From Raillietiella orientalis (lineage: Eukaryota), in assembly GCA_036172245.1 (NCBI GenBank), contig JAYWIR010000001.1:6882001-6946000 (forward strand): a stretch of DNA of 64,000 nt, written 5' to 3'. A model generated the notes under the pieces. That model was not told the origin of the DNA. It worked only from the letters and a program-made list of their open reading frames with translations, and made no database searches. The position numbers and the translations under genes are program-made. Below, piece after piece: positions 7,516 through 48,468 of the stretch; positions within the stretch are counted from its first letter, which is position 1; each line of letters starts with the position of its first letter.

Positions 7516-8992
7516 TCACAAACGATTCGTCACCGTGTCCGAAGAGCTCGTACGAGTGAGGGGATGCAAAAAGTCCCACGCATGATACTGCGGATCACCG
7601 TCCTCAGCTGGCTCCAAACTGCACTTCCGTTTGGCATACACGTGCACTTCCTCCATGCACATTCGCAGGTTCTCGATGGATTCACTTAGGTAACACAGCT
7701 GCTGCAGTAATGCCACGTCCATACGGCGCAGGCTTTCCTTAAAACAAAACACCACACGATCGATCGCCAACATGCCACCGGACACTTTCGAAACGCATCC
7801 ACGCTCCACCGACAACACCGAAGCCTCGAACCACCGCGGGCGAGCAGGTCGTCCCTGCGAACACGTTACGGTCGCACCTCGCACGCCCTGGCTGACGACC
7901 ACCACCATCATCGGCTGCCCCAATCTTCAGCGAACACGCGCAGCCGTCGACAGCACCTCGCCTCGCTCCTTCACCACGCGCCTCGACAAACCACTTCCAC
8001 GTCCACCTTCACTTTACGCAGCGGCCACCGATTGTCACCATCCTCTTCGTGACCCATCCACGCCCGCGCAACCGAAACCGTGCGCAAATCCCAAACAATC
8101 CAAATGCTTACAAACACACACCATCAAAAGGAACATCCGAAAGAACATCCGAACCGTGCCGGGATACAGGCCGTGCACAACCACCACCCCGCATCCAGGA
8201 CCAGTACAAACACCCCACCCTGTCACCGATTGCTTTCTTCGCCCGCGTGCACACATTGCGAGCAACGGCCAAACACCCACCCTCGTCCGACGACTTTACC
8301 AACGGCAAGCGGCATGCATGCGACACTCGCGGAGCAATCCCACCTTCTCCTCCCAGCAGCGCACTTCCCAACACTCCCCCAAAGGTGATGCGAACGCATC
8401 CGAAGCTTTCTTCCTTCGCTCCTCTCCTTCACGTCGCACGCAGCTCACACCTCCATTCCCAAACACCGTCGCCGGAGAACGACACCTTTCTCGGTTCGCT
8501 TATCCTGAAAACGGGATACGGGCGTGCATCCGAAAAGCGCCATGCAAACGTCCAATTCGATCTGACCTTCCATGCTCGGAAACCCGAGCGACAAACTGCA
8601 CCGACAACAACAACACGTGAACTGCAGAAGAAACGAAACACACAATACAGGCGAAGCACAACTGGCAACCAGGAACCAACGGCAACACAAGATGATCCCA
8701 TTCAACCTCCTGGCAAGCAATTCCCACTCGCCCATTTCCCATCACTCTTGTTGTTCTTGTGCGAATTGCGCCCAAGCACCCACACTGCAATCCCACGCCC
8801 ATGTATTGGGGGAAAGGACCTTACCATCTCTTTGCGAAGAACAGCAAGCTTTTCGTTTAAATCCAACGGAACGAAGGGGTTCGGAGCATCGGCAAAGTCC
8901 GTTTCCTCGCAGTCCTCATCAGCCAAATACAATGCGGAAGAAGCGAGAGCTCTCCTCAGACCATCGGGCACGCAAAGGTCGAAGACCGACAT
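7516..8992 (-). CDS. FAM89/LURAP-family leucine-rich adaptor-like protein, copy 1 (exons 8992-8825, 7737-7516; 129 aa)
   Basis: Spliced translation gives ...LNEKLAVLRKEM|ESLRRMDVALLQQLCYLSESIENLR..., resembling the FAM89 core [29 protein letters not shown]. Phase-0 GT-AG intron. Mirror of 38934..40410. Confidence 0.75.
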
Positions 8993-9052
8993 GCTCTGCA
9001 AAGCAGCATTTTTCCAAGCACCCTTCCAACGCACCGTATCCTACATCCTATC

Positions 9053-11726: not shown

Positions 11727-13940
11727 GCTCGAACCACGGAGCGCACGCAGCGCTCCCACACGTCGCTCGCCGAACAGCCTCGCGCGCGAACCCTTCTCGC
11801 CCAACTGCCGACTTCCTTCCCGCTGGACACGACGCGCCCCCTCCCTCCAGCTTGAAACGCATCGCCCTCTCGCGCCCGCTGCCGACGACACCCCCCGCCC
11901 TTCCTGCGTTTCCCAAACCTGCCGACCACCCTTTCCCCATCGTTCCGACAACTTCTTGCCTCTTGTTACGCACGTTTCCGGACGCGCCTTCTGCCCCACC
12001 TGACGACAGACGCCGACCTACGAGTCCAACAACTTGCATTGACCATTTGCGGTATTGCTGGAAGCGCTCTGCAGAATCTTTCACGAAACACTTTCTGTTT
12101 CCTCCGTGTTCTTCACGGTTCCTCGGTGCTTTCTTCCGCGGTTGCGCTGCATTTTCCCTTCTTACATGTGTTGTTGCATGGATGCCACTTGAGAAGCGGA
12201 TGCAGGGAGGTGGCCTACCATCCGCTGCCGTAGCCTGATCGGCTTCTTCTCCGGAATTCGTACGCATTGTACAACGTTGTCGTTTTCAGGATCCCACGCT
12301 CCCAGTGGGCCGCCGATGATCGCCTGCAATGCCGACTGCAATGCCGCTGCGATGAAAGTTTCGCCGACCCCACTCGGTGCGAGGCAACGCGCCCGGAGCT
12401 GCGGACAGCGACGGATGTCTCGGCGTGGCTCTCCTTTCACCGTACGCCCTAGCCTGCAGGCCGGAGCCGTGCTGACGTCTCCTCCGGAGGAGACGCAACA
12501 AGGGGGAGCGGTTCCGAAGCCCTCAACGGGCCGAAGACGCTCCTGCCTCGACTTTCGCCCGGGGCTGAGAAAGCAGGATCGTCTGGAACGGGTCGGAGGA
12601 GAAGGAAGTGTGCGAGAGCCCGAACTCTGCAGCTGGGAGGGCGCGCGGCTGTCGGTGCGAAGACCGCAGGCGGCGGCGGCGGCGGCCCTTGCGGCTCCTG
12701 CAAAGCGACCGCATCGGAAACGAGGGAAGGCAAAAGAGGTTGGGCGCCGCGCGTGCTGCCCGGGTGGCTGGAGGAGGACTGCTTGTGTGCTTGGAAGCGT
12801 TCTGGGATGTTTGCTGGTTCGGGTGGCGAGGCGACGGGAAGCCGTGGGGCCGATGTCTTGGGAACGGCCTTCTCGACCTGCGTGCATCGGCGGGTGGTTC
12901 TGAGGAAAGGAGGTTTTGGTCCGAGTGAAAAGCTGCAGCGTCTGGGTTTCGATTTCTCTCCGTGCTTCCTTTGATGGCTACATAGGGTTCTGTGTGTGTT
13001 TACGCGTCTTCTCCACGAATAGTTGTGACTTCGGTGATTGGTGTTGACTCTTTCTGAGCTTTCACTTGTGAGCGCGACTTTTGCTCTAATTCATACTCAC
13101 ATCATGCGTTCATGTGGCTCTTGCTGTTTTTTTTAATGGCAATTGACTGTGGAGACGGCAACGTGGTTTTTCTGATTTGTAGTATGGTACTGGTCTTTAT
13201 GTTCTTATTTGGCCGTCTTTGTGATCACAATTGAAGTTCTGTGCTATTCTGTTGTCTTTGGACTACTGTTGCGAACTATACGCTCCTATGCATCCATTTG
13301 GGTTCAGGTTACCATCTGATAATAGGGCAGATGGAGTTGGGCAATCATTATAGAGTGAGGTGAAATATTTTGCACAGCATCAGATGGTATGACACAATGC
13401 ACATTTACGTAAACATGTATATTGTTACACTCACATGTCTTAACACTGTAGTTAATCAAATGTGAATACTCCACAAGGTATACTGTAGAGACTTTCCTTT
13501 TGCAATGAGCAGCGCAGGGTACCGTATTATGTTCAACAAAATCAATAAAAATAAAAGTCACTGGGCACTTGTATTTCATTTTATAGACTACCTTTTTCAC
13601 ATTTTAGATTTTATTTTATCTTACTTTTTCCAATTTTTTCCTGCATTTTTTCAGTATTGGTAAGCACTTTATCATAGTGCGCACCACGCTAGACGGCAAC
13701 TTTTCCAAGTCAGTTGTAGCCCCCCCCCCCCCCCGTTGCTTAGCACTCTTTGTTGATTTCATGGGTGCAGCTTTTCATCGGTGGGACCCGGGCAAAATGA
13801 CCTACTGCATCCCAGGCGAGAGGTTCGAATTAGTGCGAACGTGAGATCTTTTCATAGACCTGCTGAGGAGGTCATTTCTGCAGAACCTCTAGCGTTCGGG
13901 TCGCACGTGGTGGTGGGCTCTAACCCCTGTTGTTTCCGCT

Positions 13941-19467: not shown

Positions 19468-21296
19468 ATGCTTGAGGGTCTGTGCTTCGCCGCGCGCACT
19501 CAACACCTTTACGCACCTTTACGTGGTGTGAGCTTGCGTGCGGATGCACAGATCCGTCCTGTGCACCGAAAATTCCTGTGGACCCTCTCACTAGGACCGT
19601 GTCCGGTGTTCCAGGGACGCCTTCTGCGATCTTTGCTGCAGCCCCGCGGGATGGCGACGGAGGCGAGCTTCGAAGTCAGGGTCAGTGCGTCCCGGGATGC
19701 CCTCGCGTGCTGATCTCACCCTCCGCTTCAGCCGTTCAAGCTCCACAACCTGGACGAGGGTCCTAACACGACCGTGGTCCTCACCAGGGAGGACGGGCTG
19801 AAGATGTACACGCAGATGCAGACCATGAGGAGGCTGGAGAACACCGCCAACGTACTCTACAAGGAGAGGGTCATCCGCGGATTTTGCCACCTCTACGCCG
19901 GACAGGTTCCAGAGCCCCCTTTCTCGTCCGCCCCTCCTTTGCTGACGGGAGCGCAACGCCTCCCCGCACCCTATTCCGCAGGAAGCGGTCGGCGTGGGCA
20001 TCCGCTTCAACATGCTGAGCCAGGACACGTTCATCACGTCGTACCGGGACCACGCCTGGGCGTGGCTGATGGGAGTGCCGATACCACAGATTCTGGGGGA
20101 GCTGGCCGGGAAGAGGAACGGCTGCGTCAAGGGCAAGGGAGGCTCCATGCACATGTACACAGACCACTTCTTCGGGGGAAATGGCATTGTCGGCGCGCAG
20201 GTGAAAACAGCGAGCGCGAAGGAGGGAGTTGGGAAGGGGGGGTAGGGAAGGGAGAATCCGCTGACCGCTCCGAACCTGTAGATCCCTCTGGGGGCGGGCA
20301 CCGCCTTCGCGCACAAGTACAGGCAGAATGGTGGCCTGTGCGTGGCAATGCACGGGGACGGCGCCCAAAACCAAGGGCAGATCTTCGAGACCTACAACAT
20401 GGCGGCTCTTTGGAAGCTTCCCTGCCTCTTCGTCTGCGAGAACAACTGGTACGGAATGGCCACGGAGATGCACCGAGGGAACGCGTGCACGGATTTCTAC
20501 ACCAGAGGGCACTACATCCCCGGAGTGTGGGTACGCAAAGGGGGAGAGAAGGGCAGGGAGGCGGAGGGAGAGATTGTGAATGCGGTTGCACCTCGTAGGC
20601 AGATGGGATGGACGTGCTGACCATGAGGGAGGTCAGCAGGTTTGCTTTCGAGTACATCCGTTCCGGAAAGGGACCGCTCGTCTTGGAGGCGGAGACGTAC
20701 CGTTACTTCGGGCACAGCATGTCGGACCCGGGAACGGGCTACCGGTGAGTGCGAGATCCGGAGTTCGGCGGGAAAGAACTCCCTGATTCCTCCGTGACCT
20801 CTTGCCTCTGCCCTCCTTTCCTCCTCTTCCTTTCCTCCTCCTCCTCACACGTTACACGCGCGCAGCGATGCATAGACCCTCGTCGCTCTCGTCCTCCTCT
20901 TCCTCAGTCTCCCACTTCCAGCACGCGCGAGGAGGTCCAAGAGATGCGTCACAGTAAAGATCCCATCATGCATCTGAGGGACGAGATGATCAACGCCGAC
21001 CTGGCCGTCCTGGACGAGTTCAAGGTATGCACCAAAAGAGGGGGGGAAGGGGAAAAGAAGAATTGGGACGAGGGACCTCTGCGCGCTTTCCCTCTGTGCT
21101 CTCGCAGGAGATAGACAATGCGTGCAAGAAGCAAGTGGACGAGGCTGCTAAGAAAGCCAAAGAGGAAGTGGAGATCGGAACCGAAGAAGTTTCTTATGAC
21201 ATCTATTCCAAGCCTCTGGAACCCTTCGTTAAGGGAGTGTCTGTTTTCTCCCCCATGGAGCACAAGATCACAGGAAAATGCGTGAACCTTCAATAA
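19468..21296 (+). CDS. PDHA: Pyruvate dehydrogenase E1 alpha subunit, divergent GC-rich paralog (8 exons)
   Basis: Spliced exons give PFKLHNL...[17 protein letters not shown]...[10 protein letters not shown]...[15 protein letters not shown]...[10 protein letters not shown]...ENNWYGM...|...[26 protein letters not shown]..., ending TAA 21294-21296, which overlaps AATAAA. Reading frame intact. Start codon and first intron less certain. Confidence 0.93.
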
Positions 21297-24200
21297 ACCT
21301 TCTTCTTCTTTTGTTCCCTAGTTCTTCGGGACATTCATTGTGTTATTATTTATTTATTCTTTCATCAATTGTCGTATTTTTTTTTTCGGTTTTTCTTTCT
21401 TCCTTTTTTTTCGGATAGAGGAGAAGATGTTCCCCTTCGAACATCTTTCTCGAGTAGTTCCTCGTGGTAAAGATGGAAGGATCAGAAGACCTCCCTCGGA
21501 ATCTCCACAGTGCAAAGAGCGCCATCCTTAGAAGGTCACGCCCTCGCAAAGGGCGACCTTCTTTGCGAGGGCCGAACCCGACTGGGCTTCCCATGCTGCT
21601 ATTTCCAAGAATTAGCGGCATATTAGCCAGAGCCAAGGAAACGAACCTGTCTTTTAGGTTTTCAACGGCAATGAGTAATTCGCCCGGCAGTGGATCGCCA
21701 AGTCAGGGTCCTGCACATCCGGGAATCGAAGTCTTTCCTTATCCCGCAAACACGCAGCAAAGCAACAGTTCCAGCCACCTTTCTCGCCAGCGCTGCCCTG
21801 TTCCCGTTTTCACTTGAAATGAACAGAGACAACTTCACCGACCACACTGTCCTTTTAGGGTACACCTGGATTTGAGCGGTGGGCACCGTCTCTATCCCCA
21901 TTACCCAGATGGCCGCATCGCAAGCGTTTCGTAGATGCTCGGGCAGTTGCTTCGCGAACGGTGACATACGGCTTGCTTGGTTACCTACGAAGCTCACGGT
22001 ACGTCATCATTGCTTTCGAACACATGCTTGAAATTCGCGACATCACTGATTGAGAGGAAACACGCAGGTGCACACGCCCAACATACTTAAGTTGAAATTG
22101 AGAGCTGTGCTTTACAATGGAAAAATTCCGGAAGCCGTGAGATGACTTTAGGTTACTGTAAAGTTTGTTACCAAAGCAATCGTTGGTGGCTGATAATTCG
22201 AACTGAAAACGGAAGTGCTCTTCTTGTCTTCGGAGATAACTCGGCTTGAATTTACCGGGGGCTGTATTTGTGTTTCATAACTGTTCTCTAAACACAGTAA
22301 GAAGCTCTGCGTATCACACAAAGAGCTTTCGAGTTTTGCATCTGCCACTATCAATCTGAATAAGGACGGGTTATGGGTGTTTGCACAAGAACATGTAATC
22401 GCAAAAAAAAAAAAGAAGCTGTTAATGGAACCACTTTTAAATCAGTGCGCTTTTATTCTTAATTCACCTGCTTCGAGTAAGGAAGTGAACCGATTAAATT
22501 ACCTTTCAAGTTATGCTATTATAAACTATTGGTTTCTAAAGCAAACGTGGCCTCGTATCTTTGCGTATGGTCTTCAAAGGAATCCTTAGTGATTCTTGTT
22601 GAAAAGTCAATGACATTTAATGACTTGTGCATTAGTATCGATTGACTTTGAATGAATTTGAAGACAGCATTGTGAATTCAAAATTACGTTGCAAGCATGA
22701 GTTTGTGACCATATATTAATTGCAGCAGGAATTTATTGGATCGCTCTTTCATTAATCTTTTGATTTGTGGAGCATGTGCTTTTCTAATGTATACGTGTTT
22801 AAATATTGTTTTCATTTATCCCATAATGTTTAAACAACAAATGGACATCGTATGTTTTACTAAAGACGAAACGCAGAATAAGATTCCATGCAAGTTTATA
22901 GTAACTAAGATTTTGAGCTTTTTCAAATACAGCAATCGTTACAATCAAGTTTGCTATGGAGCAGAAACATATGACCTTATATGCATATCTTAATCCCTTT
23001 GGGTGCGAGGCTCATTCAGATTGCAACGTTTTGTGTGTCGACGGGTCGCAGCCGCGACCTCTGCGGGCGGAACGCTTTGTCGCGTACCGCCTCGCTCTAT
23101 ATGATTGACTCTTTGAAGCGCTGATTAAAGTCACTATTCTCATCTATTTTTCCCAAACATATATTATTTATTTAAAAATTACAATTCCAATACAATCAGT
23201 AATTCATTTGGGCGCGGTACAATGTAATAAATTGCATACGACACCACCATAATATTATGTAACTCGCGGTTTTTCAGAGAGATGACTGAAAAACCGAGAA
23301 CAGTTTGCCGATATAAATAGAATTTTGTTTGCTGCCGTTGCTAAGGTAATTATGAGAAGGTAAGTGCATGCGACCATCTCAAGCATTGATAGTGTTAACT
23401 CTTGTCGCGCGTACAAAGTAAAAACATTTGCCAGACGCATATACAGAGTGTCTATAGTCCACACCGATCATTTTCTTCGGACGCATCTATGCGTCCAAAG
23501 CACTCAAAGGGTTAAGTCAATAGGTGTGGAGTAACCGTATTCAGCGAGCATCATTTGAAAAGTACCTTGATCTGGGAATAAATTGCAGCCAACAGATTCT
23601 GTATAGTGATTGCATTTTGATATTCGCTTCTTATCTAAAGCTGTGAAACATCTTTCAGAATCAATGCTTCTATTCTCTGTTATGAGTGACGTCAAAATTA
23701 ACCACTTAGCAATGTTTAGTGCTTCTCTGTGTTGTCTAATCTTCGCAATAATTACGCAGTTTGGGAAATTAGGAAAGCTGCAAAGGAGAAACTTGCAAAA
23801 ACCTTGTGATCAGGAGTAGAATCGAACTTTTAGACGGTTTTTTTAAGAATACGATATGAAAATGCATATTTTGTTTGTATTACAAAAATGGATTGGAATT
23901 AAGAAATTCTGGATGGGAAAAAATCCATGGAAGAAAAAGTTCAAAAACCTCACTTTGAAGAGTAAGCCAAATTTCCTTCGAGTTATCAAAAATCGATTCC
24001 TTGAGCTTTGAAGAGTAAGTTGTCGTCTTATGCTCAGATTTTAATTTTCCGACTTCCTCCACATTTGTCGCTTTCTATTTTCTAGTCGTAAGAAGAAAAT
24101 CGAACACCAGATAATAGCCAACAAAAACAGCAGAGACCAAAGATTTGGGCCACTGAAGAATGGTGATTTTGTAAGATGGGTAAAGTAGGAATAAACGAAG

Positions 24201-26035: not shown

Positions 26036-27873
26036 ATGATTGCTGCATCACATTGTCTTCTGCGGGGAAGTCTCATAAGATGCGTAAGTTGTTAATGGAA
26101 TTTTATTAATTCTTTATTTATTATTAATTGTGTATTGAAATCATTTGATTAGTAAAGATACTAAAAACCAACATTAATTCTCTTATTCCTAAATGGTAAT
26201 AATAGCATTTTATAAGCTTGTATTATTTTAAACAAATACAATATTTTGTTGTTCAGACATTTGTTTGATGGTTTTGTAGAATGGTACGTTATGTCTTGGT
26301 TTTACAAAGGGGATTGCAACAGAAGCTGTGATCCATTTCAAGGTATTTCGACCAAACATTGCTTTCACAGTTTTCTTTCCGTATTCTTTTCCTTATCCTT
26401 ATTATAGACTTTTGTGATAGTTACTGCAATTTAGTTGTAATAATAAATACTTTGTTTTAAATTGTTTTGACATTCATTTTCAAATGCAGAAACCATTTAA
26501 ATTACATAAATTGGAAAGTGGGCCCCCCATAAGTACAACGCTTACAAGAGAAGATGGCTTAAAAATTTATACACAAATGCAACATATTAGAAGACTTGAA
26601 AATGCAGCAAATACTTTATATAAGGAGAAAGTTATTAGAGGATTTTGTCATCTCTATTCAGGCCAGGTAAACTGCTGACTTTGAAGCAGTTTTTTATGAC
26701 TAATGCAGGAAGCAGTTGCTGTTGGGATCAAATGTGAGATGAGAGATCATGATGATATAATTACTGCATATCGAGATCATGGCTGGGCATATCTCATGCA
26801 ACTTTCTGTGTATGAAATAGTGGCTGAATTATCAGGAAAAAGTACAGGGTGTGCTAAAGGCAAAGGAGGATCTATGCATTTATATGCTAAAAATTTTTAT
26901 GGTGGCAATGGTATAGTTGGAGCACAGGTACAAATGCAATGCAACAGGACAATGTTTAAGACAATTTCAAGGTTCCTTTAGGAGTTGGAATTGCTTTTGG
27001 GCACAAATATAAAAATGATGGTAGTGTTACTGTAACATTGTATGGAGATGGAGCAGCTAATCAGGGACAAGTGGCTGAAGTATTCAATATGTGCAAATTA
27101 TGGAATTTGCCTTGTCTGCTCATTTGTGAGAACAATCAGTATGGTATGGGTACCAGCGTTAGCCGTGCCTCAGCTTGTAATTTATTCTATACTAGAGGGG
27201 ATTACATCCCTGGTATTTGGGTAAGCACAGCTTCTCCCTTTTATGAAGTTGTGTTTTCCCAATTTTCATTTAGGCAGATGGTATGGATGTATTGGCAGTG
27301 AGAGAGGCCACTAGGTTTGGTATAGATTATTGTCGTTCAGGAAAGGGCCCTCTAATTATAGAGACTGAAACATATCGTTATTTTGGCCATAGCATGTCTG
27401 ATCCAGGGACTAGCTACAGGTAGTGTAAAGACTGATTGAAAGTATAACTGAAGTTGTTGGTTTTGGCAGTGTGTGCTTTATTTGAATACTCAATGCATGA
27501 ATCAATTCTATGGCAAATAATTGTTTAAAATTGCAGGACCAGGGAAGAGGTTCAAGAAATCAGATCAAGTCAAGACCCAATCACCAGTTTCAAAGACCTT
27601 TTGCTCACTCATAATTTAGCCACATTGGATGAGCTAAAAGTAAGTTGTATGTATTGTGCTTCTATGTAACTTGTCTATGTTCAGAAAATTGATTCACAAC
27701 TTAAAAAAGAGACTGATTTGGTTGTGAGTCAAGCCAAGGCTGACAAAGAGCCACCTGGTGAGGAAATCGCATATGATATCTATGCTAATCCTTTGGTGGC
27801 TACGGCTCGTAGTGCTAATCCCTTTGTACCCTTTTCCACAAAACCAAAGCAGCAGCCAGTTTGTAACCCTTGA
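26036..27873 (+). CDS. PDHA1: Pyruvate dehydrogenase E1 alpha subunit, conventional AT-rich copy (8 exons)
   Basis: [38 protein letters not shown] (TPP motif), YGMGTS and [12 protein letters not shown] all present. Putative transit-peptide exon 26036-26083, stop TGA 27871-27873. Confidence 0.95.
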
Positions 27874-28210
27874 AGAATACACTCTAGAATCATATCCATA
27901 GATGTAGGAAATTGCTTTGATACTGCAGTATACTGTTTTCAATAGCATGCATGGAACTAGAAAATCAGAACTAGCAAATACTAAACGTAAAGGTACAGCT
28001 GAGGTTCAGATTTGCATATAATCTTAAACTTGCAGAGCTCTGGAGAACCCTCTTATAAGATTTCAGTGATCTGAATGATCTATAAAATTGAAATTGACAT
28101 TTACCCATGAAAAATACAAATTGTCTCCTCATTACCATAATATTTTTTGTACAATCTACTCCGATTTGGCTGCAAACATTTGTAAAAAAAAAAAAAAAAA
28201 AATCCATCAC

Positions 28211-33976: not shown

Positions 33977-36200
33977 TGTGAATTCACATCACACTTAATT
34001 AAATGCAAATTTAATAACTACATTCTAGACGATCACACTGAATATGAACAATTCAATAGTCAACAAACTCTCCACAGTACACACTCGACAACCACATACG
34101 TATTCACACGAAAATTATCGCACGTGATAAATGCATCCGTATTCAGTCAGCAATTCGACTTACAGGAGTTCAATATTAAGTAGCAAATAGGTAAAGATGA
34201 ATATGCTTAGAAAATTCTAAATACCAGAACAAAAAGATATACCTTACATCTTTTATCCTTCAATAAAATCCATTCACCCAATCTTTAAAAATACATATTA
34301 TAATTAGCAAATGCTTTAGGAATATGGAAACAACCCTCGGATAATACAAACAAACTGTCCCCCCCCCCCAAAAAAAAAACATAACTAAAAATACACTTCC
34401 TCAAAACATGTTATCATAGTTTAAAGAAAAAGATTTCCATAACTCACCAAAAAAAAAAACAGAAACTGCAAAAGAAACTTTAGCAATAAACACAAATTCT
34501 CTAATAATCCAAAATAAGCCATGTCTTCTGATTTTCAAGGTCTTTATTAACGACCACGCAAACATAACAAACATTTTGCATACCGAAACCTACATTTTAA
34601 AAACACATCTAATCAATCTGATATATATAAATGATCTCCGCATCAGTAAACCTATAGCACAATCAGGTTAGCCAGCAAATTCTTTTTTAAACTTCCTCTA
34701 TACACTGTCTATATCTAGGTCTACACTGCAGAAAAAATGTTAACCATGATGTTTTCCTAATTAAGACAAGATTCATTATCTTGACAATTCCTACATTACA
34801 CTTCTGCTTTTCGCACGGAACTAAATCACGTCTCCCAAGAACCACCCGCCGATGCACGCAGGTCGAGAAGGCCGTTCCCAAGACATCGGCCCCACGGCTT
34901 CCCGTCGCCTCGCCACCCGAACCAGCAAACATCCCAGAACGCTTCCAAGCACACAAGCAGTCCTCGTCCAGCCACCCGGGCAGCACGCGCGGCGCCCAAC
35001 CTCTTTTGCCTTCCCTCGTTTCCGATGCGGTCGCTTTGCAGGAGCCGCAAGGGCCGCCGCCGCCGCCGCCTGCGGTCTTCGCACCGACAGCCGCGCGCCC
35101 TCCCAGCTGCAGAGTTCGGGCTCTCGCACACTTCCTTCTCCTCCGACCCGTTCCAGACGATCCTGCTTTCTCAGCCCCGGGCGAAAGTCGAGGCAGGAGC
35201 GTCTTCGGCCCGTTGAGGGCTTCGGAACCGCTCCCCCTTGTTGCGTCTCCTCCGGAGGAGACGTCAGCACGGCTCCGGCCTGCAGGCTAGGGCGTACGGT
35301 GAAAGGAGAGCCACGCCGAGACATCCGTCGCTGTCCGCCAAGCATCGGTCAGCAACAGCCCGGGAACGTCCGTCTTCAGCATGACCGGTCGGCCGGCTTG
35401 GGACGCCGCGTCTCCTGCTCGCACGCTGACGCGTCTTTCACGCCGCAGGAAGGCAACTTGGCACTGTGGACCGTTCGCACGTGGCTGAGCGGACGGCAAC
35501 CGTGCGGCAGGCAGCGAACCACCCGCAGCTCCGGGCGCGTTGCCTCGCACCGAGTGGGGTCGGCGAAACTTTCATCGCAGCGGCATTGCAGTCGGCATTG
35601 CAGGCGATCATCGGCGGCCCACTGGGAGCGTGGGATCCTGAAAACGACAACGTTGTACAATGCGTACGAATTCCGGAGAAGAAGCCGATCAGGCTACGGC
35701 AGCGGATGGTAGGCCACCTCCCTGCATCCGCTTCTCAAGTGGCATCCATGCAACAACACATGTAAGAAGGGAAAATGCAGCGCAACCGCGGAAGAAAGCA
35801 CCGAGGAACCGTGAAGAACACGGAGGAAACAGAAAGTGTTTCGTGAAAGATTCTGCAGAGCGCTTCCAGCAATACCGCAAATGGTCAATGCAAGTTGTTG
35901 GACTCGTAGGTCGGCGTCTGTCGTCAGGTGGGGCAGAAGGCGCGTCCGGAAACGTGCGTAACAAGAGGCAAGAAGTTGTCGGAACGATGGGGAAAGGGTG
36001 GTCGGCAGGTTTGGGAAACGCAGGAAGGGCGGGGGGTGTCGTCGGCAGCGGGCGCGAGAGGGCGATGCGTTTCAAGCTGGAGGGAGGGCGCGCGTCGTGT
36101 CCAGCGGGAAGGAAGTCGGCAGTTGGGCGAGAAGGGTTCGCGCGCGAGGCTGTTCGGCGAGCGACGTGTGGGAGCGCTGCGTGCGCTCCGTGGTTCGAGC

Positions 36201-38873
36201 ATGAAAGTGAAGATCAAACGTAAGTCTTTTTTTTCCTGCGGACAAATCGGTGGTGCGGGCACCTTGGGCCGTCGTGTTGCCGCGTGGTGTTTTCGTGTGT
36301 CCGTCGCAGCATTCGACGGAAGGTGTTTTTTTTTTTTTTCCTTCTTCTTTCGTTTTTGCCCTCGTTTCGGGCAGTGTGGCAAGCAGGCAGTTGGTGGGAT
36401 GTCGTGAAGCGTGCTGGATCCAAGCAGAAGGAAAGCAGCTTGGGGTGGTCAGTTTGCTAATGTTGCCCGTGTGGTTTTTCCGAGATGTGGCCGGCGGTTG
36501 GATTCGTTCGGCGTGGCACCGGCGGAACGAATGCTGCTCGCGGCTCGATGTGGTGGCAAAGCGCACGGCTGCTGCCGCACTGCAGATTCGGGGTGCTCCT
36601 TCTGCGGTGGAGGGGATGCATTGGGGGTAGTGGGAAATGTTGGGAACGGAAAGGAAAGCGATTCGGTCGTGGACACGCGAGGATGGGATGCAGGGTCCAG
36701 CGTGGCCGACGTGCGTAGGGGTTGGGATGCGTGTGGCAGGGATAGAGCCCGCAGGTAGGTAGGTGCAAGTCGGTTGTGGGGGTACCCGCCGATGGGGCGA
36801 GTGGAATTTGGGTGTGCATGGAAGGGTTACAGTCGGAGTCCGGGTTTGGGATCGATTTTTCTCCGTGCGAAGAAGGAGTGTGTTGTTAGGGTGGCCAGAA
36901 AGTCATTTTTGCAGAGGAGTGTGTTTGTGTATGGCCGGGTTGGGCGTTTGATGGATTCCGCAGTTGGTCGTGCGTGGTTGCGGCAGCGGTCAGGAGGCTG
37001 GGTGATCCCTGGTGGTGGTTTCGTGCCTGCTTGCTTGCTGACGTGCATCGAATTTCGAGGCGGTCCGTTGCATTTGGTTGTGGGCTGAAGACCCCGGAAG
37101 AAGCAGGTGGTTTTCTTTGATTTTTCTTTTTGCTTTGTTGTTTCACGTTTGTGTTTGTACGTTCGGTCTTCCTGTCGTGAAAATCCGGGGCAAGTAGGAT
37201 GGTATGCCAAGATGGGGACATGGGGGGGGGGGGGGTAGAGCGTTTGGATTGTGTGTTTTTGTGTGCATCATTCTCAAAGAGTGTGTGTTTGTTGCGTGAA
37301 AAGAAAGTGGGGGTGTGCTCGTCAGTTTGCCCAAAGGCGTGCCGTCAGAAAGTATGTAATTTCTGTGCATGCAGGTTATGCTGGTGTAGCAGTGTGGAAA
37401 TGGGTTGCTAACGATGACAATTGTGGTATATGCCGTACACCTTTTGATGGTTGCTGCAACGACTGCAAAATGCCTGGAGATGACTGCCCTTTAGGTACGT
37501 GTACTTGTTGTTTTGGGAGTGGGTGGTGCGATCACCTTTGGAGGGGAATTGTGCCAATGCAGGTAAAGTGCATGGGGAGTGTGTTGAGGTGCGTTGAATG
37601 GCTGCATGGGAGCAGCCTCTTGGAAGCAACTGGAGTTTCCACATCAGCTGCAAGGGGTGCTTGCATCCCATGCTGGTGGTTCTGTGGAATTTGTTGGTAA
37701 ATGAAGCTCCTGGTGAATGGAGTTTCAGTTATTGGAAAGCTAGTGCTGTATTTGTGTTGTGGCAATGCAGCATTGGCATGCTGCTCTCTGAAATGTGGAG
37801 GTGGTGAAGTGGCTGTGGCTGTGCCTGGGTTGAGCGTTGAAACGATTTGAAGGTGTGTTTTTGAGCATGGTTCCTGAATGCTCGAATGTGGGTGGAGGAG
37901 TGGGTTTGTGTTGAATGTGCCAACTTTGCACCAGTTGTTCAGGTGGGTGCATTTTGTTTGTTGTCTGCAAAAAGTATGCGTTTGGTCAGTGGTGGCTTCA
38001 GGTTGATGTTGGAAACTGTGTGTTTGCTGTGGATCAGCCAAATGCTTTTATCCAAGAATGTTTTGAGCAAGCGACAGTTTGAGGTTTGTGATTTTTGTGG
38101 AGATGATGGTGGAGGGAGGACACCAGGGTGTTGAGGATTGGCTACCCACAAAGACTTGGAATGTGTAGGAACATTTGTTTTCCAGGTTGGATGCTCGTTC
38201 CCGGATTGATTTTCTCCACAATATAAGGGTTTTTTTTTTCTTTTTTTTCTTTTTTTCGTTCTTGGCATTCAATTTGGACTAGTTAGGAAGGCAAGTGCGG
38301 TGCAAGTGGTCAGGGAGCAAGGTGTTTTTCATGCTAGTAGTATGCAGCAAGGATCGTGCCCTTGCAAGTGGTGTGGGGTCGAGGGTGGTTTTTGTAGTTT
38401 TGTGGAAGATGGATGGCTGCTGCTTGCCTTATTTTGGATTTGCAGTTGTAAGTCGATCGGAAAAAGTATGCACCGGTGGCTTCCAAGAGGATGTGGAATG
38501 CATTGGCTTGGTTGTTGTGCTGTTCCTTCCCAGAAAGGGAGTGAATGTGGATGAGGTGCGCTGTAATGCATGTTGAAGATGCGGTTTTGTTTGCAAGCTG
38601 GAAGTGTGCTTGGGAAGGATGGAAAAGCAGGAGGATGTGGTTTGGTTGCATGCCTGCATGTTTAGGTGAGCTCAATCTGCATGGTAAGAAAGTGTTGATG
38701 AAGCGTAATTGGGAGTGCGGGACTGGTTGCTTGAAAGTAAGTGTTGTATGCTTTCAGTGTGGGGCCAGTGCTCTCATTGTTTTCACATCCACTGCATAAT
38801 GAAATGGTTAAATTCGCAGCAAGTGCAGCAACCGTGCCCCATGTGCCGCCAGGAGTGGAAATTCAAAGAATAG
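36201..38873 (+). CDS. ANAPC11: Anaphase-promoting complex subunit 11, copy 2 (exons 36201-36219, 37375-37494, 38758-38873; 84 aa)
   Basis: Exons of 19+120+116 = 255 nt encode a complete RING-H2 APC11 with GT-AG introns. No coding difference from copy 1 was seen. Confidence 0.95.
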
Positions 38874-38933
38874 GATAGGATGTAGGATACGGTGCGTTGG
38901 AAGGGTGCTTGGAAAAATGCTGCTTTGCAGAGC

Positions 38934-40410
38934 ATGTCGGTCTTCGACCTTTGCGTGCCCGATGGTCTGAGGAGAGCTCTCGCTTCTTCCGCATTGTATT
39001 TGGCTGATGAGGACTGCGAGGAAACGGACTTTGCCGATGCTCCGAACCCCTTCGTTCCGTTGGATTTAAACGAAAAGCTTGCTGTTCTTCGCAAAGAGAT
39101 GGTAAGGTCCTTTCCCCCAATACATGGGCGTGGGATTGCAGTGTGGGTGCTTGGGCGCAATTCGCACAAGAACAACAAGAGTGATGGGAAATGGGCGAGT
39201 GGGAATTGCTTGCCAGGAGGTTGAATGGGATCATCTTGTGTTGCCGTTGGTTCCTGGTTGCCAGTTGTGCTTCGCCTGTATTGTGTGTTTCGTTTCTTCT
39301 GCAGTTCACGTGTTGTTGTTGTCGGTGCAGTTTGTCGCTCGGGTTTCCGAGCATGGAAGGTCAGATCGAATTGGACGTTTGCATGGCGCTTTTCGGATGC
39401 ACGCCCGTATCCCGTTTTCAGGATAAGCGAACCGAGAAAGGTGTCGTTCTCCGGCGACGGTGTTTGGGAATGGAGGTGTGAGCTGCGTGCGACGTGAAGG
39501 AGAGGAGCGAAGGAAGAAAGCTTCGGATGCGTTCGCATCACCTTTGGGGGAGTGTTGGGAAGTGCGCTGCTGGGAGGAGAAGGTGGGATTGCTCCGCGAG
39601 TGTCGCATGCATGCCGCTTGCCGTTGGTAAAGTCGTCGGACGAGGGTGGGTGTTTGGCCGTTGCTCGCAATGTGTGCACGCGGGCGAAGAAAGCAATCGG
39701 TGACAGGGTGGGGTGTTTGTACTGGTCCTGGATGCGGGGTGGTGGTTGTGCACGGCCTGTATCCCGGCACGGTTCGGATGTTCTTTCGGATGTTCCTTTT
39801 GATGGTGTGTGTTTGTAAGCATTTGGATTGTTTGGGATTTGCGCACGGTTTCGGTTGCGCGGGCGTGGATGGGTCACGAAGAGGATGGTGACAATCGGTG
39901 GCCGCTGCGTAAAGTGAAGGTGGACGTGGAAGTGGTTTGTCGAGGCGCGTGGTGAAGGAGCGAGGCGAGGTGCTGTCGACGGCTGCGCGTGTTCGCTGAA
40001 GATTGGGGCAGCCGATGATGGTGGTGGTCGTCAGCCAGGGCGTGCGAGGTGCGACCGTAACGTGTTCGCAGGGACGACCTGCTCGCCCGCGGTGGTTCGA
40101 GGCTTCGGTGTTGTCGGTGGAGCGTGGATGCGTTTCGAAAGTGTCCGGTGGCATGTTGGCGATCGATCGTGTGGTGTTTTGTTTTAAGGAAAGCCTGCGC
40201 CGTATGGACGTGGCATTACTGCAGCAGCTGTGTTACCTAAGTGAATCCATCGAGAACCTGCGAATGTGCATGGAGGAAGTGCACGTGTATGCCAAACGGA
40301 AGTGCAGTTTGGAGCCAGCTGAGGACGGTGATCCGCAGTATCATGCGTGGGACTTTTTGCATCCCCTCACTCGTACGAGCTCTTCGGACACGGTGACGAA
40401 TCGTTTGTGA
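38934..40410 (+). CDS. FAM89/LURAP-family protein, copy 2 (exons 38934-39101, 40189-40410; 129 aa)
   Basis: ATG 38934 lies 3 nt after a ttgcag acceptor. Donor gtaagg at 39102, acceptor ttttaag at 40188. Core LRKEM|ESLRRMDVALLQQL. AATAAA at 40705. Confidence 0.75.
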
Positions 40411-43400
40411 ATCTGGGAAATTTGCAAGTGTGGAAGGCATTTTCGCCCTGCCCCCCTTCCCCCCTCCCTGCCCCCCGGATGTTCGCGGATGGTTTTCCTG
40501 TGCAACGATTCACGAAGCGTGGCTGAGAGTGTCTCGCTGAAGTGTTGCACCGTTTGTTTGGATGCATTCGTGCGCAGTGAATTCGCTTCCGTGTTGTGAA
40601 GCGACGTTATGATGCGAAGGGGTTTGTTGGCTGTTCGGTTTTCCAACGTTGGAATCCTCATGCCAAAGAATGGCCCTCGACGGAGAAGGGGGGAAAATGG
40701 GGCGAATAAAGAATTTTGTTCCCGCATGAATTTTCTTCCGTGGCTGGCGCCTGCCTCCCGGGAAAGGAAAGTGGAAAAGATGTTTTTACGGCAAGTGGTT
40801 CCCGCGCGTGGAATGCTTCCGGTAATCGTGTTTTTTTTCCTCTTGCGGACAGGCATGCACACCTCCAGAGCAGGGCTACGAAGTGGATGCTTTTGCGTAC
40901 CCTGGCTTTCGAGGTCGTGACGGCTTGGGTAAGGGAAGCGCGAGTTGGTGCACTTCCTCACTTTTCAGGTGGAGCATCGTGTAGCGCGGTGCTGGGGGTC
41001 AGCGTGGCCCTCGGCACGTTTGCTTCCGGTCGGCGGGCAGAGTTTTTGCTAGTGGACCGTGGCGGCGCACGACCACCGGAGGGTTGTCGGTTCGTGCGTG
41101 CCAAGAGGTGGACGAAAATTCCCGTTTCCTTCTGATCGGCAGAGGCCGCCGTGGATCGTGCGGTGCGTTCGTGCTGGCGGGTCACTGGCCGGACTGCTGC
41201 ACGTTTGAGATTCGCCGAATGGGTGGATGTGGCAGGTGGCCGCTGAGGAATGGAACTGTGTTGTGGGATCCGAATTGTGGGTCGGCCCGCTCTTGCGGTA
41301 CCGCGGTGGCGTGCATTCGGCTGCGGAGAGCCCCACGATTTCGCTCGATGGGGCTGCCTTGCAGCTGATGTTTCGACTGGTGGGATTGGTGGTTGCGTTT
41401 CCTTCATTCGCGGCAAGGAGAAAGGCGGTCTTGCAAAACGTCTTGGAGGGGCCCTTGCTCCATCGCGGCCGGTTTCATCAACTTCCTGTCCGCTAGCACC
41501 GGCCGTTTCCCCCCGCTTCGACGTGCGGATTGCGAGTAATTGGAGGACACGAGGAGGTGCTCCCGAGTTGCGTCGGCCCGAACCATTTTCCAGGGAGAAG
41601 AGCACGGCGATGGAGCGTTTGGAGTGTGGATCTTCGAGCGCTGGAGAAGGAAGAGATGGGTGGAATGCCGGCAACTTGCCCACTTGTCGCGGTGAGTTTG
41701 CTTGTGGTGGTGGGCAGTCGTTCGCAGGTTGGGTAGCGATCCGTGAGGCGCGGCAGCCGCACGTCGCTGGAGGCAGATGGGCGAAGTCGTGCTCGCGGTC
41801 GAAGCGTACCCCCGGGAAACGGATGCAGGGAAGAAGGCTGCTTTTGTGCGTGTGGGGAATCAGACTCGAGGGTCGTCGGTGAGTGCGCATCCAGGTTCTT
41901 CCCTTTCGACGTAGGGCGGCATCGACATCGCAGGGAGAGCGACCTGTTTGCTTTTCATGCAGGCAGGCGGTGCTTTTGGCTGCAGTTTCCTCACCAAATG
42001 AGGCGAATGCCTCACGCGAAAGCGATTCACTCAACCATTCTCGGAGCTAATCTGTTTCGCCCTCTCCTATCAATCACTTTTCTTACATCATACTCTTTTT
42101 AATCACTTTACACTGAAGCTGTGGAGTTTCTCTGAATACCTACTTCCTCCAACGAAGCTGCTTTTATGCGGTTCCATTCGAAAAGAAGCAACAGAGTTTA
42201 TACTAGAAACCAATAATAAACAACTTGTAATACCATCCTTTTTCTAATTCAAATGTGTGATGCACCAGTTGATAGAACCTGATCCAATGTCGTTTTTTTT
42301 CTAGCATTCAGTGTGCATTTTGTGTTGACAATCTCACAAGCATATAGTAGTTTCAAGTTTTTGCATTGAGAACATAGCTATATGGGGCTTCATATATATC
42401 TATGGAAAAAGCAATTAATTCTACAAGTTTTCTGAGCTGGTTAGAAAAGGAGAAACTAAAGTTCTGAGAATCATAGTTCTTTAGCAGGGCATCATGCAGT
42501 GGACCTGCATCAAAAAGATTCCACAGAAATTCTAGTTGCACTGCTTAAATTAGATTTATTATAAAATAAAGGTAAAATCCTGTTGGATGTTCTGAAAAGA
42601 ACTTGTACATGGCAAACTTGCATAACAATTTACAACTCAGTGTGGAACTTGTAACTCCAGGCAATATTTTTGAGCAGTGAGATAATGCACAACTATTGCT
42701 TAAGTTATGGAATGTCATAAGTTTCAATGAAAAAATCACTTATGTGGTTACTAAATATTTCTTATAGTATAGTTCCAAAATAGTTCTTTTTTTTTTTTAT
42801 ATATACAGCATTCATGAAAATTCCAATTATATAAATGCCTAATGCTGATAAATGTTGGCAAGAAGCATAGTAGATCCATGTAACCTCAACTTGAATATTT
42901 TTCCCGAAAATAATAATTGCTTTATAGTTTATTTACATTATGGACTGATGCATTATAGGACACATTCCCAAATACTCAAAGAATTGCAACTTTTAACATA
43001 AACTTGGTTGGAAACAAAAAACAGGTTTACATGAAAAAATGAGTTGGTAAGAAAGTAGTGGAAAATCTATGAGAATTACTTTGTGCCCCAATAATGTTTT
43101 GTAAATCACATTTAAAAATTAAGATAACAGAAACACCTGTGTTTCTATTCTAATGTGTTTGTGACCTTAAATTGCATTTTTCTATGTAGAAAATAGCTAG
43201 TTTTCAAAATAATTATTAGCTAGGAACTTTAGTTTCTTTATTTACTTACTACTTTCTCCTCCAATGAAAATAATTAAGCCTTATATTTTGATAAAAATAT
43301 GAAACAAACTATTAGTACAACAAAAGTTTTAATAATAAATCTAAAATCTCTGAATTCTCTCTGAATGCATACAAAATGCATCATAACAGTGCATCTGCAA

Positions 43401-43477: not shown

Positions 43478-43996
43478 CTATGTTTCACCGTGTTTTTCTA
43501 CAGATTCATATCTTTCTAATTTAGATTTTAGCTGCGCATTTTCTAACTCCAAGGTTTCCACTTTCTTTTTCAGATCTTCTAGTTCAATTTTCATATCAGT
43601 ATTCTCCAGACCGTCTTTCACAAGAACTAAATTATCTCTAACGTACATAAAAAGTTAACGAAAACTCATTCGATTGTTTTACGTTGAATTTGATCAAACA
43701 CAATACGTTCATTCACAAAGGATACTCCAATGCATCAGCAGGTCTTTCAGGCTGTTCATATAATGAAACCAAAACTTTTGTTAACATTTCTAACACCCCA
43801 GTTTTCTCCAGATACTTGCGAAATTCCTCTCGTTTCGCATTACCATACTAAAATGAAAACCACCCAATTGAACAGTATGCAAAACTGCGGTGACGAAAAT
43901 ATATATCTTTAGGAAAACACTGAGAAAACATTTTAAGGTGTCACTTTTGGATGTAATAAATTATCCCGCATTACTTACTCTTGGTGGTATTTCCAT
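43478..43996 (-). CDS. MYCBP: c-Myc-binding protein (AMY-1) homolog, 3 exons
   Basis: MEIPPR|YGNAKREEFRKYLEKTGVLEMLTKVLVSLYEQPERPADALE|...ELEDLKKKVETLELENAQLKSKLERYE...*, matching the MYCBP pattern KREQFRRYLEKSGVLDTLTKVLVALYEEPEKP plus a C-terminal coiled coil. Absent from the ORF track. Confidence 0.9.
43638..43725 (-). other. U12-type (minor spliceosome) intron in MYCBP
   Basis: 5' end reads GTATCCTTT (U12 consensus RTATCCTTT). TTCGTTAAC near the 3' end is one mismatch from the U12 branch consensus TTCCTTAAC. Confidence 0.8.
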
Positions 43997-45825: not shown

Positions 45826-48468
45826 ATGGAGAATTCACATAGCAGTAATTATGAAGGAGGTACAAAACATGATGATTCTTGCAAACAACCTTTGCAAGAT
45901 GAAGTTCCAGGTTAAGATATAATCACTTATGATCTAATTATGGCACATGTTTCATAATTTTAACTTGTCATTGGAGCATGCACATGATGTTTGAACTGTA
46001 TGTTGGTTTATATTAATGACTGCAATATCGTAGCATACGGATTCATGTCTTTTTTTTTTTTTATCATTTTATCAGATAGGAACGCAGAATTTCTCAAAGT
46101 TAAGGTGAATTACTGGTTTATGACTATGTGCAATTTAGGCACATTGTGTTTTAGGCACTAACCTTTACGTTAAAGTGATTTATCTAGAGGTTGATTTTGT
46201 GCACTTTCAGGTGCAGTGTTTACTTTCGGAAAGAGTGGCTTTGCCAATGGTGCAGTAGGAAAATTTTGGATCAGAGATGACTCCATTTTAAAGCTATCGT
46301 GTGGAGATACGCATACATTAATTCTAACTGGTATTTTGGTACAACACTGTAAAATCTAGTAATCTATATCCTTATTCACTTCTAGCATTAGGAAAGGTGT
46401 ATGGTTTTGGAAGAAATGACTGGGGTCAGCTAGGTCTGGGACGTGCCTTCCTTCAGCAAAAGCCCATTCGCATTAAAAGTAAATCTCTTGAGCCTAATTG
46501 TTGCATTGTAAAATTGCATAATTAGCTTAATTGTGGTTTACTCACTTGACATGTTAACAATATACATGTACCAGTGGAACTGAATCAAGTTTTAAAGGCC
46601 ACTAACAATTCAAGGAACCAAACGCTTGTTACAAAAAGTTATTTTTGCATTGATTCCTTGCATTTAATTACTTTTCTTGATAAGAGTTTTATTTGAGAAA
46701 AAAGTGCCAAACTGTATAGATCCTTCCAGATAATTAAGTGTTTGTGTGCATGCTTGATTCAATACTTTATCATAATTTTAGCATTGAAAACTTACAAGAT
46801 TGTGCATATTGCATGTGGTCGGCATCACAGCATTGTGTTAACAGGTAATGCTCAGCCAATTGAGTTTTTATCATAAACTGATTGTAGATAAAAATCATGT
46901 TTATACCTTTGGAAGCAATGCTGAAGGCCAACTTGGAAAGGAAGAGCAGAACAGTCAGAATTCTCTGTTCAATCCATTGCCACAAGTGTGGTTTTCAAAT
47001 TACATTTTAACCACTGTAGCTGCAGGAGCAGATTACTGCATGGCTTTGACGGGTAACACTGAACAATTTCATGTAATACACAAATCATTTCATCAGATTC
47101 AGGGCTTGTGTTTGCTTGGGGAAGCAATGCAGAAGGGCAGTTAGGATTAGAAGCAGACAGATATAATCAGCCTACATTAGTCTTACTACCAGACAAGATG
47201 AAAGCTGTTGCATGTGGCTATTATCATACTATTCTTGTTAGCTGTAAGAATGTACTGCTGGCATCACCTTTGCACCAGTGCACCTTTTCTTAAGGCATGA
47301 ATGTTAGTCAAAATTCGAATTTCCTGAATTTGATTTCCAGATTCTGGTCTGGTGTACAGTTTTGGTGATGAAGAGGGTGGTAAGTTAGGAAGAGACACAT
47401 CTGTGATTGCACGAAATGTTCCATCAGTTGTATCTGTGAGAGAGTCGATTGTAGCAGCAGCATGTGGTAGTTGTCATTCCTTGTTGCTGGCAGGTGGTTA
47501 TGGTAGATTGTGTTCTTTTTCTGCATTTCATTGCTTTTAGATAATGGTTCTGTGTATGCATGTGGGAGTGGTGAAGAGGGGCAGTTAGGCTTGGGTATGG
47601 AGTTTCTACACTGTTCAACATTCACATTAATTCAGCACCTAAAATGTGAGCACATTACACAGATCAGCTGTGGACATTCCTATTCTGCAGCTGTGGCTGG
47701 TGAGCAGTAACTTTATGTGCTTCTGTAAAGTAGTTAGATTCTGGAAAGCTATATGTATTTGGTCATGGTCATCATGGTGAGCTAGGTCTCCCTCAAGTAA
47801 AAATGGTGCATGCTCCTACTGCAGTGAATTGCCTTGATGCTTATTTTGTTCAACAGGTAGTGCATCAGTGTGTACAATGCAATGCACAATGTATGTGATT
47901 AAAGGTAGCTTGTGGTGGGTGTCATATGATTGTTCTGGCTGTGCCCCATAAAGAAAAGCAATCTACATACGTGGATTGGGAACCTCGAATACGCCGGAGA
48001 CTGACAAAAGAGGTTGTCAATCAATTCATTACAGTTCTGCGGATCCACAGGTTTATAGGGGTCACAAGAAGAAAGCCACAGAATGCTTGCTATGCTGCCT
48101 CCATTGTACATTAAGGAATCTGTAAATAGTCCTGTTGAACAGCAGTATCAGAACGACTGTTCAGAAATTCCACAAGCAGCTATAGATAGCTTTAGCCATA
48201 ATAGCAGTAATGAGGATATTAGTGAGGAAGTCAGCATTGCTGTTCCCAGCATTACTAGAAGTAAGTTATGAGTGTGTATTTCACAGTCATCAATTAAATA
48301 TAGGGTCAAAATTGAAGCAGATTTGGGCAAAATTCAAAAGAAAAGGAAAACCAACAACTTTGAGCCAGAAGGTATGTTCAAATGGAACACAGCATCCAAG
48401 CAAGGTGAGGCATCATGCAGAGAAAAAGGTTAACCCTTTTATACTTCCAGGCTTGTATAATCCTTTAG
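45826..48468 (+). CDS. RPGR: Retinitis pigmentosa GTPase regulator-like RCC1-repeat protein with C-terminal CAAX
   Basis: GAVFTFGKSGFANGAVGKFWIRDD..LSCGDTH matches the RPGR N-terminus. Multiple RCC1 repeats (FGSNAEGQLG, AWGSNAEGQLG, ACGYYH, ACGGCHM). Spliced end HPSK|ACIIL* resembles the RPGR prenylation end SKSCTIL. Confidence 0.85.

Follow-up and report, generated by a model that had tools for sequence, protein, structure and literature searches.

We analysed a 64,000-nucleotide (nt) stretch of the Raillietiella orientalis genome (hereafter the window; GenBank assembly GCA_036172245.1, contig JAYWIR010000001.1, positions 6,882,001 to 6,946,000), in which the Apc11 gene (ANAPC11) is followed on the same strand by a second open reading frame (ORF2). 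All positions below are those of the window. The Apc11 coding sequence (36201-36219, 37375-37494, and 38758-38873, plus strand) has GT-AG introns and encodes 84 amino acids (aa). Its first coding exon has 19 nt and ends at a phase-1 intron, the position of which is the same as in the metagenomic locus L041 (see below), and both larger exons exceed the Pfam zf-ANAPC11 cut-off (43.1 bits for exon 2 and 60.7 bits for exon 3, with its TAG at 38871-38873). Forty homologues of this protein were 84-95% identical to it, the named ones being Apc11 or hypothetical. ORF2 (38934-39101 and 40189-40410, plus strand) encodes a LURAP/FAM89-like protein of 129 aa; the 3' end of its first coding exon holds the first half of a coil motif, and its second coding exon includes the stop. 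The intercistronic spacer (38874-38933) has 60 nt, and ORF2 lies in the frame of Apc11 with two TAG stops between them. An earlier note, made from the letters alone, had proposed this pair as a bicistronic or trans-spliced unit, and the positions that it gave were all right: the Apc11 TAG ending at 38873, the ORF2 ATG at 38934, a GT at 38892, an AG ending at 38930, and an ATG-TAG element at 38880-38885. Its remark that AATAAA is absent between the genes agrees with the hexamer scan from 36000 onward, in which the first AATAAA, the likely polyadenylation signal of the unit, was at 40705-40710 (plus strand). None of the 11 polyadenylation hexamer types scanned occurred within the spacer, and the variant AATACA was found at 39119.

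Upstream of Apc11, a GC-rich island extends over 34800-36200. The GC skew changes from negative to positive near 35300-35500 and is positive without break over 36-42 kb. The minus-strand exons near the island carry Pfam RabGAP-TBC and Rhodanese domains and belong to a gene that we presume to be TBC1D23-like. The island is a putative bidirectional promoter common to this gene and the Apc11 unit, and transcription of the unit probably starts within it. Two strong donor-like sites, at 35928 and 36009 (35928-36014, plus strand), scored 7.5 and 8.1, where the real donors have a median of 6.4, and no acceptor scoring above 3 was found between them and the Apc11 ATG.

To place the pair in other genomes, metagenome contigs with an Apc11 alignment were examined, and the best 80 of 171 confirmed stretches were kept as loci (L-numbers). 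A FAM89-like ORF was found behind Apc11 in 14 of the 80 loci (11 distinct sequences). Nine of the 14 loci were used to build a FAM89-like profile; L023, L041, L048, L056, L075, and R. orientalis ORF2 itself were independent of this profile. In a tblastn search with R. orientalis ORF2, 13 of the 14 loci were matched at E 0.051 or better, and L048 was matched by the N-terminal motif only, approximately 700 nt downstream. The Pfam LURAP cut-off was passed by five of the six ORF2s of relatives tested. Defined gaps between the two ORFs ranged from 2 to 89 nt in 10 of the 14 loci; they were 2-15 nt in five distinct relatives and 2-6 nt in the Daphnia-type loci L007-L009. Nine contigs run uninterrupted across junctions that hold introns in genomic relatives, as expected for spliced RNA with both ORFs, and L007-L009 are considered spliced RNA because Daphnia magna DNA carries the intron in question (P0199; genomic L056 and L075). 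L056 encodes a member of the cluster that in Daphnia bears the name "leucine repeat adapter protein 25-like", and the accession number of the D. magna FAM89A-like record is adjacent to that of Apc11. No convincing FAM89 match was obtained for the remaining 66 loci; a second check of 22 of these with loose motifs, covering 1.1-6 kb, left all 22 blank, and long spacer introns are possible in such loci. Many of the 66 were non-arthropod, and several had another gene close behind Apc11.

The ORF2 protein was then compared with these relatives and with known families. The spliced ORF2 scored 51.9 bits on the profile of nine relatives, whereas the best of 2000 shuffles scored 10.7; because its score is far above those of the shuffles, ORF2 is not a chance ORF. 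ORF2 exon 2 alone scored 24.4 bits on Pfam LURAP (E 2.9e-5; cut-off 25), the coil motif being split by the intron, and 19.6 bits on DUF4530. Only this exon and its inverted copy, described below, matched LURAP in the genome. A phase-0 intron follows the EM of the coil at the same position in ORF2 and in L023, L041, L056, and L075. An N-terminal motif of the GLPPLPKSL type, present in nine of nine aligned relatives, was not recognisable in ORF2; because of its absence, ORF2 is filed as a divergent positional orthologue rather than a typical member. The Atlas ranking, flagged as uncertain, put FAM167 clusters first (0.90 and 0.89) and a LURAP cluster third (0.89). With ORF2 exon 2 as query, BLASTP against the Daphnia protein P0194 gave no alignment, and none of 34 candidates scored in a protein search. 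phmmer with the same exon returned only two long proteins, of 996 and 2249 aa, each matched over five stretches, and both were taken as noise. A search of a viral collection gave two weak RING matches.

The earlier note knew of no described unit of this kind, and here it was mistaken, because lmgA-lmgB of the Drosophila lemming locus is this unit. According to Nagy et al. (2012, PMC3372440), lemming mRNA is dicistronic, with lmgA (Apc11) and lmgB separated by 92 nt (83-165 nt among drosophilids); the dicistronic form is the main product, and minor monocistronic ends were mapped 56 nt after lmgA (3' end) and 107 nt before lmgB (5' end). In the same paper, LmgB is reported to have no domain and no homologue beyond Drosophilidae, a two-hybrid screen found no partner, and the authors describe the arrangement as obscure. 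The Apc11-LmgB pair was recorded on single expressed sequence tags as far as Bombyx by Hayden and Bosco (2008, PMC2276209), where the printed fly and moth second ORFs show the N-terminal GLPPLPKSL motif and the leucine coil. FlyBase (PMC4528330) includes lmgA-lmgB in its set of polycistronic loci, which contains 159 dicistronic pairs, and gives alternative monocistronic forms of both genes. In a count by eye from the printed sequence, the coil of fly LmgB was identical to that of R. orientalis ORF2 at 18 of 37 positions and to that of the L020 ORF2, which is over the Pfam LURAP cut-off, at 31 of 37. Because the coil is shared and L020 passes LURAP, LmgB appears to be LURAP/FAM89-like and its pairing with Apc11 to be the one seen here. 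The Apc11-ORF2 pair, to judge from the sequences, is thus the lemming pairing, and the arrangement is already in print; what is new here is the family of LmgB and the much wider range of the pair. No paper linking lmgB to FAM89/LURAP, or taking the pair beyond Bombyx, was found in the mostly open-access literature, and databases may carry the family label; the passages of PMC7260771 that were consulted contain nothing on lmg.

The position of the genome bears on the age of the pair. The genome gave 14 arthropod-type cuticle-domain matches. Among 8000 candidates scored, three pentastomids were the top matches of its COX1 (74, 73, and 73%), compared with 68-71% for insects, and in a COX1 tree of 18 rows, comprising only pentastomids and insects, the genome grouped with the pentastomids (100/100). 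The pentastomid placement is likely, though unproven, since the tree holds these two groups only and the query forms a long branch. Pentastomida fall within Oligostraca, a branch at the base of Pancrustacea. Given Daphnia, the insects, and this placement, the Apc11-FAM89 unit would date to the pancrustacean ancestor; the dating takes in Pancrustacea (Daphnia-type, insects, and pentastomid-like), several positive loci being unplaced.

Next, the signals in the spacer were examined. Splice sites were scored against 40 introns of the same genome from four sources: the site-1 protease gene (10 of 12 introns, two with uncertain ends being dropped), PI4-kinase junctions (15 of 24), two pyruvate dehydrogenase genes (10), and the RCC1-repeat gene (5 of 6). 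A candidate 39-nt intron at 38892-38930 (plus strand) has an ordinary acceptor, at the 40th percentile of real acceptors. The acceptor AG (38929-38930) ends 3 nt before the ORF2 ATG and is not distinctive alone; 13 of 205 AGs inside the three introns of the unit score as well. Overall, the splice signals of the spacer are no better than chance expectation. The acceptor could alternatively receive a leader or an upstream donor. Of the 40 measured introns, 31 have 38-53 nt, and the shortest, at 47700-47737, has 38 nt; because introns down to this size exist in the genome, a 39-nt spacer intron is possible. The very short introns of the genome come with diverse weak donors. The L041 spacer also contains a donor and acceptor pair, with the acceptor 4 nt before the second ATG.

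The spacer contains two AUGs (38880 and 38917), compared with 1.5 expected. In the spacers of nine relatives, no AUG was observed against 3.4 expected (P ~0.03, the related species not being independent; L009, L030, L031, L036, and L048, which are duplicates or without a defined gap, were left out), and the gap therefore looks scanned in the relatives. The earlier note had pointed to the ATG-TAG element (38880-38885, plus strand) as a minimal ORF; it is probably incidental, because no AUG occurs in nine of nine relatives' spacers, and a special role for it was rejected as unsupported. The second AUG, absent from the earlier note, opens an out-of-frame ORF of 17 codons (38917-38970, plus strand) that overlaps the ORF2 start. 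Any splice to 38930 removes this AUG; a bypass of it therefore requires use of the acceptor at 38930, whether in cis or in trans. Leaky scanning over the full-length mRNA was rejected as unlikely because the two start codons are separated by many AUGs (11-12 in R. orientalis, 4-10 in each of five relatives). Readthrough or in-frame fusion was also rejected, since two in-frame TAG stops persist after the 39-nt splice, each of the three frames is represented among the gaps of relatives, and exon skipping would not keep the frame.

On these grounds we propose that, very probably, a single transcription unit begins at the island (~35.3-36.2 kb) and ends at ~40705, with Apc11 first and a FAM89/LURAP-family adaptor second. 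Such a shared unit is well supported by the homology to lemming and by the spliced two-ORF contigs of relatives. The bicistronic unit of the earlier note thereby stands as regards shared transcription, whereas the 39-nt intron that went with it is only weakly signalled. How ORF2 is translated is less clear, and we give about an even chance to a dicistronic mRNA from which ORF2 is expressed by reinitiation, helped by removal of the micro-intron. In this mechanism, a single promoter at the island would drive both ORFs, and the main mature RNA would be dicistronic, as in flies and as the spliced contigs of relatives indicate. Apc11 would be translated abundantly by ordinary cap-dependent initiation, and ORF2 would have a low output from ribosomes that resume after the Apc11 stop. 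Splicing of the 39-nt intron in cis would shorten the gap to 21 nt and eliminate the competing AUG at 38917. The two ORFs, their homology, and the conservation of their adjacency and intron positions are established, whereas co-transcription in R. orientalis, the micro-intron, reinitiation, and the low output of ORF2 are all parts that we infer.

Several observations weigh against the reinitiation mechanism. The donor at 38892 is at the 8th percentile of the 40 real donors, and only one of the 40 introns has 39 nt or fewer, which puts the candidate intron in the short tail. A spacer with AUGs, unlike those of nine of nine relatives, suggests that it is maybe no longer scanned, and ORF2 lacks both the N-terminal motif and the proline-rich stretch of its relatives. 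As for the contigs, assembly can merge overlapping transcripts, and some uninterrupted ones could be intronless genes, as in Drosophila. Reinitiation is unproven even in the fly, because LmgB-Flag was undetected from a two-ORF construct in S2 cells (PMC3372440) and FlyBase lists a monocistronic lmgB that arises from an alternative promoter (PMC4528330).

Other routes to ORF2 start from the same pre-mRNA. In a spliced-leader operon, which we regard as the serious rival, possible though rather unlikely, the promoter would be the same and a leader would be trans-spliced at 38930 to give a capped monocistronic ORF2 mRNA. An acceptor 3 nt before the ORF2 ATG with only a weak donor as partner, and AUGs that have accumulated in the R. 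orientalis spacer but not in those of relatives, are consistent with this, and copepods and amphipods are known to add leaders by trans-splicing (PMC7986045; PMC4664967). On the other side, the spacer has no AATAAA for Apc11, operons were unreported in these two crustacean groups (PMC7986045), and trans-splicing is unneeded to explain the pairing because the same pair is a dicistronic mRNA in insects. The search for a leader RNA gives a weak negative: Rfam SL1 had no match among the 50 of 32641 candidates scored, where a divergent leader would be missed, and no leader RNA was found beside the five 5S ribosomal RNA genes scanned of 43 5S matches. An evolutionary version, in which an ancestral dicistron turned into a spliced-leader operon in the pentastomid-like lineage, with the leader added at 38930 and the spacer freed to gain AUGs, is in our estimate unlikely. 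The acceptor might instead be joined within the transcript, in that the donor at 35928 or 36009, or the first donor of Apc11 (36220), is spliced to 38930, so that Apc11 is skipped and a monocistronic ORF2 mRNA results. We consider this alternative splicing from the shared promoter improbable. It would account for two strong upstream donors without a good acceptor before the Apc11 ATG and for L041 and the termite-like L076, L077, and L079, two different lineages in which the spacer has a strong acceptor with a strong donor right behind it, 29-30 nt past the Apc11 stop, and splicing of this kind is recorded by FlyBase for some dicistronic loci (PMC4528330). However, both donors may lie upstream of the start of transcription, and a join of Apc11 exon 1, or of exons 1 and 2, to 38931 is out of frame and gives a 31- or 71-codon ORF that begins at the Apc11 AUG and crosses the ORF2 start.

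The pair might also be two independent overlapping genes, with the ORF2 promoter in Apc11 intron 2 or exon 3 and the Apc11 polyadenylation site in the spacer or at AATACA 39119. The lack of room for a promoter in the gap, to which the earlier note pointed, does not speak against one inside Apc11 intron 2; this option, the AATACA, and the inverted copy described below were all absent from that note. Both monocistronic forms exist as alternatives in flies (PMC3372440 and PMC4528330), and the L020 spacer contains an AATAAA. Yet the dicistronic form is the main fly product (PMC3372440), one transcript is favoured by the spliced two-ORF contigs and by the five distinct relatives whose gaps have 2-15 nt, and the GC skew is unbroken over 36-42 kb, so two independent genes seem very improbable. 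The routes to ORF2 expression can coexist.

With this assignment, lmgB, which had been seen as domainless, restricted to Drosophilidae, and apparently untranslated, gains a family (FAM89/LURAP-like). If the pentastomid placement holds, the unit would be as old as Pancrustacea and one of few long-lived two-protein mRNAs in animals. The cladoceran transcripts, with spacers of 2-6 nt, provide a natural setting in which to test reinitiation behind a full-length ORF. If the R. orientalis genome uses leader splicing, the same pair would allow a direct comparison of dicistron and operon; an operon here, if true, would belong to a large number of such operons in an arthropod genome and would have a traceable origin from an older two-protein mRNA. 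The surprise is limited, because the basic arrangement is already published.

Apc11 was followed closely by other genes in other metagenomic loci. In L013, L015, L021, L022, and L064, the gene 4-106 nt behind Apc11 encodes site-1 protease (MBTPS1), not FAM89, and in L015, L022, and L064 it is one uninterrupted ORF of more than 1000 aa on the same contig. Further genes were PIG-L in L010 (84 nt), ECSIT in L018 (~89-143 nt), an ankyrin and G-patch protein in L016 and L019 (59 nt; Pfam on L016 only), and peptidase S26 in L014 (204 nt, with an AATAAA between). Apc11 may often serve as the lead cistron, with a second gene that changes between animals (site-1 protease, PIG-L, ECSIT, and others). The single contig L011 (104-6353) carries Apc11, a FAM89-like ORF, and, 103 nt behind the stop of the latter, an ORF for PI4-kinase alpha, all uninterrupted, and is a candidate three-ORF transcript. 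In L030, L031, and L036, no AUG of the FAM89-like ORF lies behind the Apc11 stop. The frame of this ORF is already open from an AUG within Apc11, and a 3-nt insertion or deletion just past the Apc11 stop preserves it; an overlapping start, a non-AUG start, or a spliced isoform are candidate explanations. Two database models are fused, the Daphnia-type P0196 (Apc11-LURAP, 227 aa) and P0173 from Romanomermis (MOZART1-Apc11, 193 aa), and are possibly merged predictions of tightly linked genes.

The entire unit and its upstream island occur a second time in the window, in inverted orientation (5897-12941, minus strand), with the Apc11 ATG at 11726, the ORF2 ATG at 8992, and AATAAA at 7221. The alignment of 35523-42029 with 12404-5897 is 99.68% identical over 6514 nt, together with a 541-nt block; over the full span (5897-12941 versus 34798-42029), ~185 nt of the island are missing. 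The coding exons and the spacer are identical between the copies, and the differences cluster in intron 2. The plus-strand copy is probably the parent because it adjoins the divergent TBC and rhodanese gene. The inverted copy is either a recent duplication or an assembly artefact; a repeat scan around it gave nothing that explains the duplication, and a fragment of a long interspersed nuclear element (LINE)-type endonuclease lies at 4747-5205. Tandem paralogues at 19700-21300 and 26300-27900, which we take to be pyruvate dehydrogenase E1-alpha-like, comprise one GC-rich gene (introns 68-177 nt) and one AT-rich gene (42-117 nt). A small minus-strand gene at 43500-43850, by eye presumably MYCBP-like, is divergent to an RCC1-repeat gene (Pfam) at 46000-48400 on the plus strand. 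Elsewhere in the genome, 5S ribosomal RNA genes form inverted pairs with a spacing of ~1.2-1.7 kb, and a decayed copy lies ~440 nt upstream of some of them. Most of the 54 COX1 matches in the assembly are fragments located on other contigs. On the mitochondrial contig (1745-2300), ~550 nt between cox1 and cox2 repeat the stretch before cox2, and ARAGORN found no transfer RNA.

Compared with known systems, ORF2 shares the leucine-repeat coil with the FAM89/LRAP25 and LURAP1 adaptors (Pfam LURAP, PF14854). It differs from the FAM89/LRAP25 family in its divergence and missing N-terminal motif, and the binding of MRCK, MYO18A, and Dishevelled belongs to vertebrate LURAP1, an adaptor for these proteins (PMC5677176). 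The closest named relatives are the Daphnia "leucine repeat adapter protein 25-like / FAM89A-like" proteins (P0194 and P0273), of whose cluster the L056 protein, encoded 15 nt behind Apc11, is a member. The spliced-leader operons of Ciona and Oikopleura (PMC7986045) are alike in having unrelated housekeeping genes head to tail less than 100 nt apart with an acceptor just before the second ATG, but the searches described above found no leader RNA in R. orientalis, and the pair found here is a dicistronic mRNA in insects. The nearest counterpart is lemming. The fly locus is intronless, whereas three introns interrupt the R. orientalis unit, with the spacer as the possible site of a fourth; LmgB has 365 aa with the GLPPLPKSL motif, whereas ORF2 has 129 aa without it; and co-transcription, demonstrated in flies, is deduced here from the genes and their relatives. 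In both, Apc11 comes first and an ORF with the coil motif second on one strand, the gap is less than 100 nt (89-92 nt in the fly and 60 nt here), and many AUGs lie within the first ORF.

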